Below, piece after piece: positions 2,627 through 60,810 of a stretch of 64,000 nucleotides of DNA. A model generated the notes under the pieces. It did not search any database. It saw only the letters and a list, made by a program, of their open reading frames with translations, and was not told where the DNA came from. The first letter of the stretch is position 1; the number at the start of each line of letters is the position of its first letter. This DNA is from a virus, in the IMG/VR virus record IMGVR_UViG_3300045253_000023, positions 64,001 through 128,000 of that record, one strand, 5' to 3'. The position numbers were made by a program, and so were the translations under genes.

Positions 2627-3277
2627 ATGACAGCACGCCTGCGTGATTACATCCGCATATACGATGATGCGATTCCAGCTGAGGCTATCGACAAGCTGCG
2701 TCAGTTCTACTATTTCATGGAGAAGAAAGGTGATGTGAAGTTGGTTGATGTTGAGAACTATGCCAGATACTATCATGTTCCCATCACATCGTCAATCAAG
2801 GAAAAGGAAGATGAGGCGCATCTATGCCATAAGTATTTGGCAAAGGTTCAACTGCATTATTTCCAGGAATATCAGAAGCAAATTGGTATCTCACATCAAC
2901 GATTGTTCTCTTCTGAATCTGATGGCGACACCACACGCGCATACAATGAATCATTCTTCATGCGCATGTATGCTCAGGATTGTTTCGTTGGCGAGCAGTA
3001 TGATGCGCGTTGCCACAACTCTGGTCGTCGTTTCTTGTCTTCAGTTTTGTTCTTGACCAATGATGAACAGAACTCATTCCACTTCGATACTCCAGTGGTT
3101 GCTGAACCAATCAAGGCAAAGGAAGGTCGTCTTGTGATCTTCCCATCCAGTTGGCAGTATGTCCACAAGGAACTTCCACCAATTGAAACTCATCCGCGCA
3201 TCAACATCTATGGTTTCTATAGCTGGTATGATGAACTCGCGGCCATGAAGAAGATTGAAGAGGCAAAGAAATCATGA
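2627..3277 (+). CDS. 2OG-Fe(II) oxygenase-like protein (HxD degenerate)
   Basis: RRFLSSVLFL...GRLVIFPSSWQYVH pattern of phage 2OG oxygenases; QYD at the HxD position. Confidence 0.7.
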   Translation: MTARLRDYIRIYDDAIPAEAIDKLRQFYYFMEKKGDVKLVDVENYARYYHVPITSSIKEKEDEAHLCHKYLAKVQLHYFQEYQKQIGISHQRLFSSESDGDTTRAYNESFFMRMYAQDCFVGEQYDARCHNSGRRFLSSVLFLTNDEQNSFHFDTPVVAEPIKAKEGRLVIFPSSWQYVHKELPPIETHPRINIYGFYSWYDELAAMKKIEEAKKS

Positions 3278-3762
3278 GCGCAATCAACCACACACAATTC
3301 ATGAACATCGCCAAGGAAGTGGCCAAGAGTTCAAATTGTATCTCACTCCAAGTTGGTTCAATCATTGTTGTGGACAATCGTATTCGTTCCATGGGTTACA
3401 ATGGAACACCAAAAGGATTTGTGAACTGTTCTGATCTGTTTCGCGAACGCGGTCCAGAACACACTAAATGGTCCATGGATCATGAAGTACACGCGGAACT
3501 CAACGCTGTTCTCTATGCAGCAGCCGAGGGACTTCCGATCAAAGGCGGCACCATCTACACCACAGTTGAACCTTGTAAGAATTGCATGAAGCACATGATC
3601 GGCGCTCAGCTGAAATCATGTGTGTTCGATCAAGCATACTACAATGAACAATATGACGACAAGACCATCAAGCATGAGCTTGCCAAGGGATGTGGCTTCG
3701 GAGTTTATCAACTCATCAACGGGATTGCTGTCGATTGGACACTAGCACAAGATCAACCATAG
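3274..3762 (+). CDS. dCMP deaminase
   Basis: GYNGTP, HAELNA, PCKNC zinc motifs. Confidence 0.9.
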   Translation: MSAINHTQFMNIAKEVAKSSNCISLQVGSIIVVDNRIRSMGYNGTPKGFVNCSDLFRERGPEHTKWSMDHEVHAELNAVLYAAAEGLPIKGGTIYTTVEPCKNCMKHMIGAQLKSCVFDQAYYNEQYDDKTIKHELAKGCGFGVYQLINGIAVDWTLAQDQP

Positions 3763-27069: not shown

Positions 27070-28476
27070 ATGAACGCACTTTTGAATGCAATGAACCAGA
27101 CTGGTCGTACTGCGAATGGCGCAGCAACCAACTTGTCTTCGCAGTCGGCTGTTGTCGATTTGTTCTTCCTTGCTGGCGCATCACGCGGCAAAGATATCAC
27201 CAAGGCATTTGAACGTGCACTTGGCGAGAATGAAGACCTGGCAATCCGTATTCTCTTGTGGCTTCGTGATGCTCGCGAGGGTGCAGGTGAGCGTGATCAG
27301 TTCCGCAACCTGTTGAAGTATCTTGTGTCCACTGGACGCAAGGAACTCGCAGAGCGTGTGCTTGCACGTACTCCATTCCTCGGTCGTTGGGACGACGTCG
27401 TTGAGTTCCTCAATGGTGAGCTGTACCCAACTGCTGTTCGCTTGATTGAAGGCGCACTCGAGAAGCAGGACGGATTGTGCGCAAAGTGGATGCCACGTAA
27501 GGGTCTGCTTGCTGTTACATTGCGTCAGGCATTGAATCTTTCGCCAAAGCGATACCGCAAGACATTGGTCAACCTGTCCAACACTGTTGAGCAGGCAATG
27601 TGTTCTGGTGATTGGAACGACATCAACTTCTCGCATGTTCCATCGGTTGCTGCTGCGCGTTACCAGAAGGCGTTCACTCGTCATGATGGTGAGCGTTACA
27701 GTGCATATCGTGAAGAGTTGAAGAAGGCACCAGCTGATCGTGACCCAAAGGTCAAGATCAACGCAAAGGCAATCTTCCCATATGACATCGTCAAGTCTGT
27801 TCGCAGCGGCGATCGTGATGTGGCTTCAGCCCAGTGGTTGGCACTGCCAAACTTCTTGGAAGGTAGCGATGAGCGTCTGATTGTTGTCGCAGACGTTTCT
27901 GGTTCGATGAGTTCACCTGTCTCGCAGGGAACAACTGCAATGGATGTTTGTATCTCCCTGGCAATGTATCTCGCAGAGAGACTCGAAGGTCCATTCAAGG
28001 ACACATTCATCACGTTCTCGCAGCGTCCAGTGTTGCAGCGTCTGAAGGGACCATTGTACTCGCGTATTGAGCAGTTGAACAAGGCTCAGTGGGACATGGA
28101 CACCAATTTCGAGGCAGTGTTCAATCTGATTCTGAAGGCAGCGGTCGACAATGACGTTCCTCAGAGTGAGATGCCAACAAAGATTCTGGCGATCTCCGAC
28201 ATGGAGTTCAACGCATGCGGTGGATCACGCGTCAACTCGACACTGTATGACGCAATCAGCAAGAAGTACGCTTTGGCTGGTTACGAAATGCCAGGAATTG
28301 TGTTCTGGACTGTCAATGCTCGTGAGGGCAATAACCCAGTTACAATCCGTGACGCTAACACAGCGTTGGTGTCTGGTTTCTCGCCAGCGATCGTCAAGAG
28401 CGTTCTTGGTGGTAAGGACATGTCCCCAATCTCAGTGGTCCTCAAGACAGTGGGTGTGGATCGTTACAACTACTAA
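27070..28476 (+). CDS. DUF2828-family TROVE/Ro60-like protein with C-terminal vWA domain
   Basis: T.NGA, LRDAREGAGER, GRWDD, AKWMPR, VPS.A, DVSGSM, TNFEAVF, ISDMEF, IVFW, VSGFSP. Confidence 0.88.
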   Translation: MNALLNAMNQTGRTANGAATNLSSQSAVVDLFFLAGASRGKDITKAFERALGENEDLAIRILLWLRDAREGAGERDQFRNLLKYLVSTGRKELAERVLARTPFLGRWDDVVEFLNGELYPTAVRLIEGALEKQDGLCAKWMPRKGLLAVTLRQALNLSPKRYRKTLVNLSNTVEQAMCSGDWNDINFSHVPSVAAARYQKAFTRHDGERYSAYREELKKAPADRDPKVKINAKAIFPYDIVKSVRSGDRDVASAQWLALPNFLEGSDERLIVVADVSGSMSSPVSQGTTAMDVCISLAMYLAERLEGPFKDTFITFSQRPVLQRLKGPLYSRIEQLNKAQWDMDTNFEAVFNLILKAAVDNDVPQSEMPTKILAISDMEFNACGGSRVNSTLYDAISKKYALAGYEMPGIVFWTVNAREGNNPVTIRDANTALVSGFSPAIVKSVLGGKDMSPISVVLKTVGVDRYNY

Positions 28477-30102: not shown

Positions 30103-30234
30103 ATCCTTTTGTTTTCAACGAAAGGCTGACTGCCAAGTTGAATGAGATCAAGAGTCAGACATTGACTCCAGAACAAAAGAAACAAGCAGTGCATGAAGCA
30201 ATTGCATTGATGAAAGAAATTCAACAACAATTGC

Positions 30235-30307
30235 GCCCTTGCCAATAGGAATGGTGGTTGCCTCCTAAGCAACCGAGATGTGAGTTCGAGTCTCACCAAG
30301 GGCACCA
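30235..30307 (+). tRNA. tRNA-Arg(CCU), reduced D arm
   Basis: gttgc-CTCCTAA-gcaac. Confidence 0.8.
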
Positions 30308-30311
30308 ACAA

Positions 30312-30527
30312 ATTCAAGTTCCGAGCTATCGCGGGCAGTAACTCCTGTCTGAGGAAGTTCAGGACTGGCGCAAGGGACGTGTGGAAGATGGTACGGAACA
30401 TCGTTAACACCACCGTGATGATAGCCAGCAAGCCAAACAGAACTAGGGAATCTCTTGCCTATTGGTTCGGGTGGGTGCATAGTCGAATGATAGCATAAAA
30501 CAGAATCCTGGCTACGGGAACTTGAAT
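30312..30527 (+). ncRNA. rnpB: Minimal RNase P RNA
   Basis: P1, P2, P3, P4 with bulged U; GAGGAAGUUCAGGA, AGCAAG, GAAUGAUAGC, ACAGAAUCCUGGCUA. Confidence 0.85.
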
Positions 30528-30912
30528 CTCTCTTGAGGTATCCAATCATGATTGCGCGTTTGTATTTGTGGCTGTTTCCTTGGAGTTATTCTGAGAATGG
30601 ATTCAAGCGTTGGCATAAACTCTCAGGAGAATGTGAGGTTTCTTATTCCCAATGTCTCTATCCATACAAACCAATTTGGGAGAGATTTTCATGGGGCGAC
30701 AAGTAACATTGTATGATTTTCGTTGTGTTCAGATTCAGATTGGGGACGAGGTTGTTTTTGTTGATCAAAATGACTTCCGTGAAGCTGTTGTACATGACAT
30801 AACCGAGCGCGGGATTGTTGTCCTCACAAAGGATTCCCAAATGCTCACACTTGATCCTCTCAAGATTGTTGTTGTCGAGAGTTAATCAAGTCCAACACAG
30901 GAGATGTAAGAT

Positions 30913-56109: not shown

Positions 56110-56409
56110 ATGAAATTCAAAGCACATCTTGCGGAAGGATTCGCCAATTATCTCGGATACTCAGGTTCCGGAATGAAGTTGCCTCGTGATCGCCAGAAAG
56201 CTGGTGAAATGAATCAAGATGACGTCAAGTACATGAGCGTCGGCAAAGAAACAGACGTGTATGAGATTGGCACTGGCGACAAGAAATATGCCAAAGTGGT
56301 GTCCATTTTCTCCACGACTGGTGGCGGACATGCTGTCACTGTTCAACTTGCTGATGCCGATGGATACTTCAAAGGCAAGAAACTCACATACAAGATCGTC
56401 AAAGGATAA
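56110..56409 (+). CDS. Hypothetical protein, probably head-packaged
   Basis: MKFKAHLAE after CTAAGTA. Confidence 0.55.
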   Translation: MKFKAHLAEGFANYLGYSGSGMKLPRDRQKAGEMNQDDVKYMSVGKETDVYEIGTGDKKYAKVVSIFSTTGGGHAVTVQLADADGYFKGKKLTYKIVKG

Positions 56410-56491
56410 TATCGCTTTACTTCTTCCTGAACTTCAGGTAGAATATACATCACAATTGAATTCACGTCATCACGATAGGGAGTCTATCAAC

Positions 56492-57568
56492 ATGAACAAC
56501 AAGCCATATGATTTGGCCGTCTACATCGGCCGTTTTCAACCCTTCCACAATGGGCATCTTCATGCCCTACTCGAAGCCCATAAGTTGGCCTCGAAAGTCC
56601 TGGTGCTCATCGGCACCAGTGAATCTCCTCGCACACCCAAGAATCCATGGACATTCCAAGAACGCGCATCCATGATCATGAATGCTGTGGAAATCAGCAA
56701 TGCGCTGGTTGGCACTGGTGATCTTATTCCAATTCCACGACGCCTGAATGACTTCATGTATGATGACACCAAATGGGTGACTCGTGTTCAACAGGAAGTT
56801 GATGATTTTATTGAACAAAATGGTGATTTGCGAACAGGCAGAGCGCCAAGGATCGTCATTGTGGGTCACGAAAAGGACGCATCCTCATACTACCTGCGCA
56901 TGTTCCCGCAATGGGAATTTGTTGACACTGGCGCAGCCCAAGAGAAACCAGTCTTGGAAGCAACCAAGATTCGACAGCTGATTTTTGAAGACAACCTGAT
57001 GTATGTTCAGTCTGTTGTCCCGCCAAATGTATACACATTCCTGAGTGCCTGGTCATCCACCACGACCTATGATGGCGTGCGTGCTGAGTATGATCACTAC
57101 AAAGAATACAAGGCCAAGTTTGCTTCCGCTCCATTTCCACCCACCTTCCTCACCGCAGATGCCTGCGTGATTCAATCTGGACACGTATTGCTGGTGCGTC
57201 GCAAGAGAGAACCAGGAAAGGGATTGTATGCGCTCCCTGGTGGTTTCGTGAATCAACATGAGACCATGGAGGATGCGGCACTGCGTGAACTCATCGAAGA
57301 AACCAACATCAAGCTGCAACCTGATGTTCTCAAGCGTTGCATTCGCTATAGTAAGGTGTTTGATGCTCCGCATCGATCATTGCGCGGTCGAACTGTCACT
57401 CAGGCATTCCTGATTCGCCTCGATGATTCCAAGCCACTGGCCAAGGTCAAGGCAGGAGACGACGCTGAGGAGGCAATGTGGGTTCCATTCAATAACGTCA
57501 TGTCAATGCGTCCAGAGATGTTCGAGGACCATTATGACATGGTGTTCCATATGATCTCAAAGGCATGA
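56492..57568 (+). CDS. Bifunctional NMN adenylyltransferase/Nudix hydrolase (NadM-Nudix, NatV-like)
   Basis: IGRFQPFHNGH, KNPWT, SSYYL, Nudix box GGFV...ETMEDAALRELIEET. Confidence 0.93.
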   Translation: MNNKPYDLAVYIGRFQPFHNGHLHALLEAHKLASKVLVLIGTSESPRTPKNPWTFQERASMIMNAVEISNALVGTGDLIPIPRRLNDFMYDDTKWVTRVQQEVDDFIEQNGDLRTGRAPRIVIVGHEKDASSYYLRMFPQWEFVDTGAAQEKPVLEATKIRQLIFEDNLMYVQSVVPPNVYTFLSAWSSTTTYDGVRAEYDHYKEYKAKFASAPFPPTFLTADACVIQSGHVLLVRRKREPGKGLYALPGGFVNQHETMEDAALRELIEETNIKLQPDVLKRCIRYSKVFDAPHRSLRGRTVTQAFLIRLDDSKPLAKVKAGDDAEEAMWVPFNNVMSMRPEMFEDHYDMVFHMISKA

Positions 57569-57890: not shown

Positions 57891-58667
57891 AGTTCCTGTC
57901 ATTGAGAGGAACCTTCGCAATATGAGCACCAAGTCTGAAATCAAAGCCTTCATCCAGGAAGCTGTTGAGTATCTCGCTGACAACTATGGTGATGCGCCTT
58001 TCTGCGAAGCTGCCATCGCCATGGCGCGCGAAGACGGTCGAGATCACTATCTGGCTGAGTCATGCTCGGCTGAAGAATTTGCTGAACTTTGTGCTGAATT
58101 CGCTGAACTTGAGGCTGGCACCATATGAAAATGACTTTCTTCAAGGCTGTGGCTGAGTTTCCAATGCGGGACAAGAAACCTGGCACTGAATTGTTTTATG
58201 TTGGCACTGGTTCTTGGCCGCTGACCAAGAACTTCCTCAATTCCAAGGTCTATCCCACTGTCAAGGCAGCTGACAAAGCATTGGCATCGTTGTCCAAGAA
58301 CTATGAAGGTTGCATTCGCACGTATGTGCTTCCATTTGAATTGGAGTATGACACGCTGAATGACACCGATCAAATGCGCGAGTTCGTTGCTGAATCCATG
58401 CGATATCCGCATTCTTCTTCAAACAACAAAACTGAATTCACAGTTACACCGTAACATGGGTGTTCATGCACATAATGGCACAATGCCTGGAGCAGTGACG
58501 CCGATCTGTAACAACTGCATGATTGCTCTTTGTTTTGACATTGGTGAACAAGAATACAAGGAAGACAAAGAGTTTTGGGACAATTGGGTCTGTCGCGACT
58601 GTAATGGCGGCGAACCCTTATCGCGCCATGTATGGCGTCAACAACACATACAAGAAGGAGTTTCTGT

Positions 58668-60104
58668 ATGACAAATCGCAATCCAATTCTATCCACCGAC
58701 AGCTACAAGTTTTCACATGACAAACAATATCCGGAAGGCACTGAAGACATCTATGCCTATCTGAGCGCACGCGGGAGCCGCGTTGCAGGCTGCAATGAAG
58801 TCGTGATGTTTGGGCTTCAACCCTGGATTCATGATCGCATGTGCACTCCAGTGACGCGCAAGCATGTTGATGATGCGCGCATGTTTTGTATTGCTCATGG
58901 CGTCCCATTCAACTATGAAGGCTGGAAGTACATTGTTGAGAAGCACAATGGTTTCCTGCCTGTTGAGATTCGCGCTGTGCCTGAAGGCACCGTTGTGCCA
59001 GTTGGTATGCCAATGGTCACTGTTCATGCCACTGATCCAAAATGCGCATGGTTGACCTGCTACCTGGAAACTGACATCATGCGCGCGGTCTGGTATGGTT
59101 CGACCGTTGCCACCATTTCGCGTCATTGCAAGAAGATCATCAAGAGATATCTGGACATCACTGCTGACAATCCGGAGCAGGAAATCAGCTTCAAGCTGCA
59201 TGACTTCGGCTTCCGTGGTGTCTCGTCAACGGAATCAGCGGAGATTGGCGGCGCGGCGCACCTGATCAACTTCATGGGCACTGACACCGTTGGTGGTATA
59301 ACGCACGCAATGGAATACTATGCTGCGGATGTTTGTGGGTTCTCCATTCCCGCATCTGAACACTCCACAATGACTTCCTGGGGTCGTGACAACGAAATCA
59401 AGGCATACTGGAACATGTTGGAGCAGTATGCTGGTCAAGGCAAAACATTTGCCATGGTCATTGATTCCTACAACTGGCGCGAAGCAGTCGAGAAGCTGTA
59501 CAACAGCGGATTCTTCGATGAGGTCAAGGCGCGTGGTGCCACCGTTGTGCTCCGTCCCGACTCTGGTGATCCAACCAAGGTGCCTGTTGAACTGATTGGG
59601 CAGCTGATGTTGCTGCTTGGATATGACCGAAATGGCAAGGGATACAAGGTTCTCCCTTCTCATGTTCGAGTCATCCAGGGAGATGGCATCACCTTTGAAT
59701 CGCTGGAACAGATTCTGATCAAGATGGTGCATCATGGATTCAGCACATCGAACATTGCATTTGGTATGGGTGCTGGTCTGTTGCAGAAGTGTGATCGTGA
59801 CACATTCAAGTTTGCCATGAAGTGCTCGGCAATTCAACACTTCAATGGTTTCTGGAGTGATGTGTTCAAAGACCCAATTGATGCTCCTGACAAGAAAAGC
59901 CTGCGCGGTCGAGTGACCACAATCAAGCATGTGGATGGCACCATGAGTGTCACCACACTGGACAAGCTGCGCGAAGAGCATCGCATCCAGATGACTGAAG
60001 AAGGCGACATGAACATGCTGAACGTGGTCTATGTGTTGGATCACAATGGAATGCGTGTCAAGTTCACCAACTTTGAGGCTATTCGTGCTCGCGCTGCCGT
60101 CTGA
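58668..60104 (+). CDS. nadV: Nicotinamide phosphoribosyltransferase
   Basis: TDSYKFSH..QYP, LHDFGFRG, PASEHS, RPDSGDP, IQGDG, FGMG. Confidence 0.93.
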   Translation: MTNRNPILSTDSYKFSHDKQYPEGTEDIYAYLSARGSRVAGCNEVVMFGLQPWIHDRMCTPVTRKHVDDARMFCIAHGVPFNYEGWKYIVEKHNGFLPVEIRAVPEGTVVPVGMPMVTVHATDPKCAWLTCYLETDIMRAVWYGSTVATISRHCKKIIKRYLDITADNPEQEISFKLHDFGFRGVSSTESAEIGGAAHLINFMGTDTVGGITHAMEYYAADVCGFSIPASEHSTMTSWGRDNEIKAYWNMLEQYAGQGKTFAMVIDSYNWREAVEKLYNSGFFDEVKARGATVVLRPDSGDPTKVPVELIGQLMLLLGYDRNGKGYKVLPSHVRVIQGDGITFESLEQILIKMVHHGFSTSNIAFGMGAGLLQKCDRDTFKFAMKCSAIQHFNGFWSDVFKDPIDAPDKKSLRGRVTTIKHVDGTMSVTTLDKLREEHRIQMTEEGDMNMLNVVYVLDHNGMRVKFTNFEAIRARAAV

Positions 60105-60399: not shown

Positions 60400-60810
60400 G
60401 GTAATTGTTGGTGTCCCAACAGGCCGTCATTGCAAGATGAGTGTATGAAGCGAGCCGAAAGGTTCTTTGGACGCGGGTTCGATTCCCGCCATCTCCACCA
60501 AAATGTATTGTGGCGACCATGGGTTCAATTCCCTTAACTCTTAGGCCGAGTGGAAGCGAATGAGGAAAAGAGCTTAGCGGCTCGACAGGTTCAAATCCTG
60601 CTCAGTACATTTTGATGGGGATGCCCAGGTTTCGACAGGGGACATGACTAGGCAAGTGGACACTCCGCCGATGTTACTGGCGATTAAAGTGAAACAAAAC
60701 TCCAAATGCAGCTAACGATGCTGTTTTCGACCAGTCTTCGAACGTTCTTCAGTTCCGCAAGGCTGCTTGATATCAACTGTGATCCCGAGTGGATTCCTCA
60801 ACGGGATATG
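60400..60810 (+). ncRNA. ssrA: Circularly permuted (two-piece) tmRNA; outer ends approximate
   Basis: T arm + CATCTCC-ACCA (ends 60500) precedes GGGGATG..TTCGAC (60617); G3:U70; tag AANDAVFDQSSNVLQFRKAA* at 60708-60770. Confidence 0.92.

Follow-up and report, generated by a model that had tools for sequence, protein, structure and literature searches.

A miniature RNase P-like RNA in the tRNA array of a T4-like environmental phage is probably a working catalytic RNA

The DNA analysed here, a stretch of 64,000 nucleotides that we call the window, corresponds to bases 64001-128000 of a complete virus record of 161,561 bp with direct terminal repeats. The major capsid protein encoded there, Gp23, is of the T4 type (382 bits), and the carrier of the small RNA described below is a T4-like environmental phage; a proteobacterial host seems plausible, since a helicase of the window is about 60% identical to helicases of Pseudomonas, Xanthomonas and Variovorax phages. 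ARAGORN called 37 tRNA genes in the window and Rfam returned 32 tRNA matches, for an array of about 38 tRNA genes in all. The 32 Rfam-called tRNAs, found between 11562 and 35231, all have an encoded 3'-terminal CCA and a canonical GTTCRA T-loop, and adjacent tRNAs in this region are often separated by spacers of only 5-10 nt. Inside the array, at 27070-28476 on the + strand, lies the gene of a 468-aa protein with DUF2828 and DUF7788 domains (PHROG 850, labelled “RNA-binding protein”). A permuted tmRNA, already proposed in the preliminary description of this DNA, was recognized by Rfam at 60439-60770 (102 bits); at gathering thresholds, tRNAs and this tmRNA were reported in the window, and nothing else. 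The intervening segment of the tmRNA (about 90 nt, at about 60520-60616) contains two T-arm-like hairpins, GGGUUCAAUUCCC and CAGGUUCAAAUCCUG, and an 11-bp closing stem; shuffled sequences fold about as well (z -0.32). NAD salvage genes adjoin the tmRNA: an NMN adenylyltransferase/NUDIX fusion (PHROG 395, 1198) is encoded at 56261-57568 (+), and a nicotinamide phosphoribosyltransferase (PHROG 448) at 58632-60104 (+).

Embedded in the same array is the 216-nt element that is the subject of this study, the parts of which are given in Table 1 together with the tRNA preceding it. This upstream tRNA has an anticodon CCU as read from the sequence and was not called by ARAGORN, and its Rfam alignment lacks three model positions between the acceptor and D stems. 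Only 4 nt separate its end from helix P1 of the element, so that its 3' processing would set the 5' end of the small RNA. Neither a promoter-like nor a terminator-like site was seen next to the window copy, and tRNA-processing enzymes probably excise the RNA from the array transcript. A protein-coding reading of the element was ruled out, as no frame is open across the family of homologs.

Table 1. Coordinates in the window of the RNase P-like RNA, of its parts and of the preceding tRNA.
Feature	Position	Strand	Evidence
Upstream tRNA with encoded CCA	30235-30307	+	Rfam tRNA, 38.9 bits at 30235-30304; CCA at 30305-30307
Whole miniature RNase P RNA gene, 216 nt	30312-30527	+	RF00373 end-to-end match; homologs; covariation
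P1, 5' strand (pairs with 30517-30527)	30312-30322	+	Sequence, MFE fold
P2, 5' strand, 7 bp (pairs with 30488-30494)	30325-30331	+	Pair counts
P3 hairpin (30332-30338 with 30345-30351)	30332-30351	+	Pair counts
CR-I: J3/4 GAGGAA and P4 5' strand AG(U)UCAGGA (30356-30364)	30351-30364	+	Invariant in 12 copies; Rfam consensus match
P5, 5' strand CUGGC (pairs with GCCAG, 30424-30428)	30365-30369	+	Invariant, 100% paired
P6 pseudoknot, 5' strand in J5/7 (pairs with P17 loop, 30452-30457)	30371-30376	+	Pair counts
S-domain remnant: P7-like helix (30378-30384 with 30410-30415) and hairpin (30387-30402)	30378-30415	+	RNAalifold, pair counts
J5/15 CAA, P15 (30432-30436 with 30472-30476), P16/P17 (30440-30468), L15 GGGU (30469-30472)	30429-30476	+	Pair counts
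CR-IV AGUCGAAUGA, leading into P2 3' strand	30481-30494	+	Match to Rfam consensus UAGucGAAU
CR-V: J2/4 ACAGAA and P4 3' strand UCCUGGCU (30506-30513)	30500-30513	+	Rfam consensus match; P4 covariation
P1, 3' strand	30517-30527	+	Sequence, MFE fold, pair counts

The element had been proposed to be a phage-encoded RNase P RNA, a reading that the covariance-model match, the covariation across the family and the position in a tRNA array now bear out; every helix and motif named at the time (P1 to P4, AGCAAG, GGGU..GUGC, GAAUGA and ACAGAA) was found again at its place. The covariance models, to which the preliminary description had looked for a decision, gave a divided answer: no RNase P family reached its gathering score in the default Rfam scan, but the archaeal model RF00373 (RNaseP_arch) gave a clear match below threshold. 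Indeed, the whole of this model, positions 1-288, aligns to 30313-30526 with 46.6 bits (E = 4.4e-12 in a 551-nt search of 30150-30700 with permissive filters; 3.1e-13 per genome), and this match is the only one of its kind in the whole genome. The alignment identities include GAGGAA..UC, AGCAAG, GC.UAGUCGAAU and AACAGAA; CR-I, J5/15, CR-IV and CR-V all contain some. The score stays under the gathering score of RF00373 (84 bits; that of RF00010 is 100 bits) because most of the S-domain is missing, the alignment skipping about 117 S-domain positions of the model. When RF00010 and RF02357 were searched alone against the genome, neither gave a match at E<=10. The best Rfam matches of two relatives fall in different families, RF00010 for L228 (42.2 bits) and RF00373 for L040 (40.8 bits). 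The minimum free energy of the window RNA has a z-score of -2.46. Pairwise identity to E. coli M1 RNA was not used as evidence, as the local pairwise alignment with M1 was not significant and no better than that of the best shuffle; MAFFT, for its part, put the 5' half of M1 in the wrong place.

We gathered about 20 homologs, all of them located within same-strand tRNA arrays, from Stenotrophomonas phage DLP_6 and from uncultured phage contigs. The DLP_6 homolog (KU682439.2, 105774-106018; L001 in our set) is an unannotated element of 245 nt that was found by blastn in the gap between AAY80_165 and tRNA-Arg; the DLP_6 genome paper makes no mention of an RNase P-like RNA, and DLP_6 is the only match that blastn with three family members returned among cultured phages. 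Using two conserved stretches as search patterns, we retrieved copies in IMG/VR from complete phage genomes of 368, 436 and 465 kb, and further ones from contigs of 417 and 462 kb as well as from T4-sized contigs; six more copies came from metagenome contigs. The copy of DLP_6 and those of the huge phages were missed by Rfam even in permissive mode. Among prokaryotes, a motif scan of genomes gave no true copy among the 120 matches listed, and 400 sampled genomes of one bacterial class held no full-length RNA of the phage type. In a scan for copies that combine the CR-I motif with a very short S-region, none of the 14 hits was true.

Intact copies measure 192 to 284 nt, the window copy being among the shortest, and they differ from one another at three places: the length of P3, the hairpin of the S-region, and the position of P18, where one to three hairpins can be found. 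At several loci, tRNAs directly adjoin the RNase P-like RNA at either end: in L021, for instance, a tRNA-Ile ends where P1 starts and a tRNA-Gly starts 6 nt past the end of P1. In the copy of L218 (- strand; RNA start near reverse-complement position 2489), the region between the P5 strands is much longer, about 150 nt, and holds GAGAAUCCCGGCUGCC, which resembles the CR-V/P4 3' strand, perhaps because part of the RNA was duplicated internally, or because this stretch offers an alternative partner for pairing.

In order to assess the structure, we counted base pairs on a MAFFT alignment of 12 copies, the P1 boundaries of which were set by eye because the automatic finder had misplaced several of them. 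On these 12 copies, RNAalifold independently recovered P1, P2, P3, P5, the P7-like helix, P15 and P16/17. An explicit RNase P-style structure of 50 pairs that includes the P4 pseudoknot has 97.0% of its alignment cells paired, vs. 23-41% when the partners are slid by 1-3 columns; double-sided changes occur in 26 of the 50 pairs, and none of 500 shuffles reaches the observed values. With both P4 and P6 included (56 pairs), 96.2% of the cells are paired, vs. 26-42% in the slid controls, and 32 pairs show double-sided changes, those of both pseudoknots among them. At the sequence level, the core motifs GAGGAAG...GAC, the linker CAA and GGGU are invariant in the 12 copies, as is the CR-IV block (..GAAUGA).

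The signal is spread over most of the molecule. Every homolog has its own terminal helix P1 of 8-14 bp, whose inner four pairs include three with double-sided changes; P2 shows such changes in five of its seven pairs (98.8% of cells paired) and P3, of variable length among homologs, in four of six. The long-range helix P4 comprises 8 pairs (97.9% of cells paired), two of which change on both sides, namely columns 83/323 (GC in 10 copies, AU in 2) and 84/322 (CG in 6, GC in 6); the bulged U of the window RNA lies at 30358, and the bulge is a U in 11 copies and a C in one. In CR-V, ACA..A and GGCU are invariant. P5 is itself invariant and so provides no covariation evidence. In the 3' part of the molecule, three of the five P15 pairs and seven of the nine P16/17 pairs have double-sided changes. 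In E. coli, the GGU of L15 pairs with the CCA of the tRNA; the GGGU of L15, invariant here in the 12 copies, is on this analogy the putative CCA-binding motif. Between P15 and CR-IV, the window copy has no P18, and neither have L028, L037 and L040; the one to three hairpins found there in other copies are of uncertain homology to P18.

The P6 pseudoknot was absent from the elements listed in the preliminary description and was found here from the alignment. All six of its pairs have double-sided changes, despite the misregister of two sequences by MAFFT. In the window, the linker following P5, GCAAGGG, faces CUCUUGC in the P17 loop, and in other copies the partners change together, e.g., GUGAGAA with UUCUCAC or GCGGAAA with UUUCCGC. 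Across 17 copies with 12 distinct J5/7 linkers, a linker forms on average 7.1 contiguous pairs with its own loop, vs. 5.1 with the loops of other copies.

The claim that the specificity domain is much reduced was likewise confirmed, with only 54 nt between the P5 strands and the skipped model positions mentioned above. The catalytic domain is complete, both pseudoknots included, but very little is left of the half that contacts the tRNA elbow. The part with CR-II and CR-III, i.e., the T-loop binding site, is absent from the window RNA. What remains is a P7-like stub and one hairpin (94% of cells paired, two covarying pairs), with conserved flanks of the stub, GGGAG and ACCACCGUGAU; in other copies, the hairpin of the S-region is capped by a GNRA or a UUCG loop.

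Two huge-phage copies are interrupted. In L012, a complete 436-kb genome (site at 2856-3452, - strand), and at the same site in the related contig L025, 612 nt are inserted into the RNase P-like RNA gene; this insertion encodes a 199-aa SegE-like GIY-YIG endonuclease (PF19835, 27.2 bits) and replaces 9 nt, the 5' strands of P5 and P6 included. The insertion is 100% identical between L012 and L025, whereas about 4% of the positions differ in the RNA on either side, and Rfam detected no group I intron signature around the insertion of L012. From these sequences, the insertion has the look of a homing endonuclease that was mobile until recently and has this conserved RNA gene as its target. No second, intact copy was found in the complete 436-kb genome; as its sole copy is split and has lost the 5' strands of P5 and P6, the RNA may be dispensable, or may have been lost recently, in that phage.

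To which class of RNase P RNA does this family belong? It has to be kept in mind that it scores below the threshold of every Rfam RNase P family and is therefore filed here as a member of none. Judging from its architecture, the phage RNA is best described as a reduced bacterial type A form that has lost its S-domain, and not as an archaeal type T RNA; this assignment relies on the 7-bp P2, the 3-nt J5/15 linker, P6, and the P15-17 arm with its invariant GGGU. With the type A RNAs (RF00010; 377 nt for M1, the product of E. coli rnpB), it shares P1 to P5, the P4 pseudoknot with its bulged pyrimidine, CR-I, CR-IV and CR-V, P2 of 7 bp, J5/15 of 3 nt, the P6 pseudoknot, and P15-P16-P17 with GGU. 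It differs from them by its size (216 nt vs. about 350-400 nt), by an S-domain (P8-P14) shrunken to the P7 stub and one hairpin, by the lack of P18 in the window copy, and by being a viral gene that lies within a tRNA array without an accompanying rnpA.

The archaeal type T RNAs (RF02357; about 200 nt, in Pyrobaculum and other Thermoproteaceae) are the other natural form of similar size, with a conventional C-domain, a degenerate S-domain, P6 and no P18 (PMC3579882, PMC5839562). However, type T works with archaeal proteins and is characterized by a P2 of 3 bp, a P15 one pair shorter and a P5/P15 linker of 2 nt, whereas P2 has 6 bp in other archaea and 7 bp in bacteria, with a 3-nt linker (PMC3579882); in the phage RNA, P2 counts 7 bp and P15 5 bp, and the linker, invariably CAA, is 3 nt long. 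These differences in P2, P15 and the linker, along with the lack of an RF02357 match, indicate that the S-domain reductions of type T and of the phage RNA are convergent and do not define one family. The closest parts list is that of an engineered RNA, the E. coli C-domain known as Eco CP RPR (Mao et al. 2018, PMC5839562), which also consists of the C-domain alone with P15-17 and a P6-type contact; it is, however, a laboratory deletion, whereas the phage RNA is natural and evolutionarily maintained, has a covarying P6 of 6-8 bp and keeps a P7 stub. In CPR bacteria, the diverged RNase P RNAs (Lui et al. 2021, PMC8172020) also score too low for the Rfam thresholds, and in some lineages P12, P13, P14 and P18 are missing; each of them, however, is the sole cellular copy of its genome, and what they are described as lacking are individual helices, not the whole S-domain. 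The phage RNA, in contrast, is a supplementary copy carried by a virus, and its S-domain is nearly gone.

The engineered RNA also bears on function. Cleavage by the isolated E. coli C-domain depends on P15-17 and on a P6-type contact, which a mimic can supply; it takes place both in the presence and in the absence of C5, and in an RNA that has no S-domain the loss of P18 makes no difference. The efficiency of this C-domain is, however, about 500-fold lower than that of the full RNA (PMC5839562). All of the parts that this C-domain needs are kept in the phage RNA, which argues for an RNase P catalytic RNA; the absence of the T-loop-binding elements of the S-domain counts against function. On balance, we think that the phage RNA most likely functions as an RNase P catalytic RNA and would trim the phage pre-tRNAs and the pre-tmRNA; we infer its expression, catalysis, protein partner and benefit from comparative sequence data. 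As for the partner, the preliminary description had recognized no rnpA-like gene in the window, and this holds for the complete 161.5-kb genome, where PF00825 found no match; nor did it find any in five other carrier genomes, five of the six being complete by CheckV. Host RnpA is the partner that we propose, with lower confidence than the catalytic function itself.

The sequence of events that we envisage would begin with transcription of the RNA within the phage tRNA array and its release by the cuts that free the neighbouring tRNAs. It would then fold into P1-P5 and P15-17, with the pseudoknots P4 and P6 locking the structure, and bind the host RnpA (C5) protein. The resulting enzyme would remove the 5' leaders of some 38 phage pre-tRNAs and of the permuted pre-tmRNA, holding its substrates mainly by the acceptor stem and by pairing of the encoded 3'-CCA with the GGU of L15, not by contacts between T-loop and S-domain; the CCA encoded by 32 of 32 window tRNAs fits the retention of the L15 motif. 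The benefit to the phage would be an extra, or host-independent, RNase P RNA during the burst of phage tRNA precursors. It had also been suggested that the small S-domain is an adaptation to non-canonical tRNAs; we did not find support for this idea, since the T-loops are canonical in all 32 tRNAs and the RNA is also present in phages whose arrays score as ordinary tRNAs.

Other readings of this RNA deserve to be weighed, beginning with those in which it would not act as an efficient catalyst at all. As a decoy or sponge, it would mimic the RnpA-binding face of RNase P RNA and capture host RnpA, thereby throttling host tRNA maturation or redirecting the protein. Such a role would explain why the S-domain, important for efficient type A catalysis, is missing, and any protein binding must indeed compete for host RnpA, as no phage rnpA was found; yet a decoy would hardly need the elements of substrate binding and chemistry that are invariant or covarying here (L15 GGGU, the J5/15 adenosines, the bulged pyrimidine of P4, and P6, which positions P15-17), and blocking RNase P would be self-defeating for a phage that encodes 38 tRNAs and requires RNase P activity for them. 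We find the decoy quite improbable. The notion of a functionless remnant of a captured host rnpB fares worse: scores below all Rfam thresholds, the loss of a whole domain and the insertion tolerated in one lineage are what one would expect of it, but about 20 diverged copies maintain the fold by compensatory changes in nine helices around an invariant core, their position in tRNA arrays is conserved, and no similar full-length sequence turned up in the 400 genomes of one bacterial class or among the 120 prokaryote motif matches listed. In view of the covariation it already looks refuted, and we hold it to be scarcely conceivable.

Two further readings keep the catalytic activity but change either the partner or the substrates. 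In the former, the RNA would work without a protein, or with an unrecognised phage protein that would dock on the P7 stub or on the variable hairpins of the P18 site. The conserved flanks of the stub have no known role, most of the neighbouring ORFs have no family assignment, and reliance on a single host protein would be awkward given the apparent diversity of the hosts. Bacterial RnpA contacts CR-IV, CR-V and P15, as seen in the T. maritima holoenzyme, and RnpA proteins are broadly interchangeable among bacteria; that these very regions are kept and that RnpA is so interchangeable both weigh against a phage protein, as does the fact that no candidate gene is consistently found beside the RNA, so that this reading appears doubtful. 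In the latter, the ribozyme would have become less selective with the loss of its S-domain, and the main targets of the ribozyme would be other than standard pre-tRNAs: the two-piece tmRNA precursor, tRNA-like small RNAs or host mRNAs. Removing the S-domain does remove the T-loop checkpoint (PMC5839562), and the window also encodes a permuted tmRNA and the DUF2828/DUF7788 “RNA-binding” protein; the constant association with large tRNA arrays, however, together with the retained CCA-binding motif of L15 and the CCA of 32 out of 32 window tRNAs, points back to pre-tRNAs and makes other main targets unlikely.

RNase P RNA is seen as a housekeeping ribozyme of cells (and organelles). Among the papers covered by our full-text searches, none describes an RNase P RNA encoded by a phage, and neither the 2020 huge-phage paper nor a 2026 jumbo-phage review mentions one; in a 2024 review of RNase P, phages appear only as sources of substrates, T4 pre-tRNAs having been central to the discovery of the enzyme (PMC11143913). 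The broader proposal, which we put forward tentatively as a possibility, is that large phages carry their own natural “catalytic domain only” RNase P, working with an unrecognised phage protein, with none or with host RnpA, and that it makes phage tRNA maturation independent of host rnpB and favours the CCA-bearing pre-tRNAs of the phage during takeover. For annotation, the whole family is missed by default Rfam thresholds. The culture of one carrier, DLP_6, leaves the claim open to direct testing. If true, this would be the first virus-encoded RNase P, and it would be evidence that an enzyme of bacterial type can do without the S-domain in vivo; studies of structure and mechanism that ask what the S-domain, P6 and P18 contribute would gain a natural, evolution-tested minimal bacterial-type RNase P of about 190-285 nt, and tRNA 5' maturation would join the translation functions that large phages bring with them.
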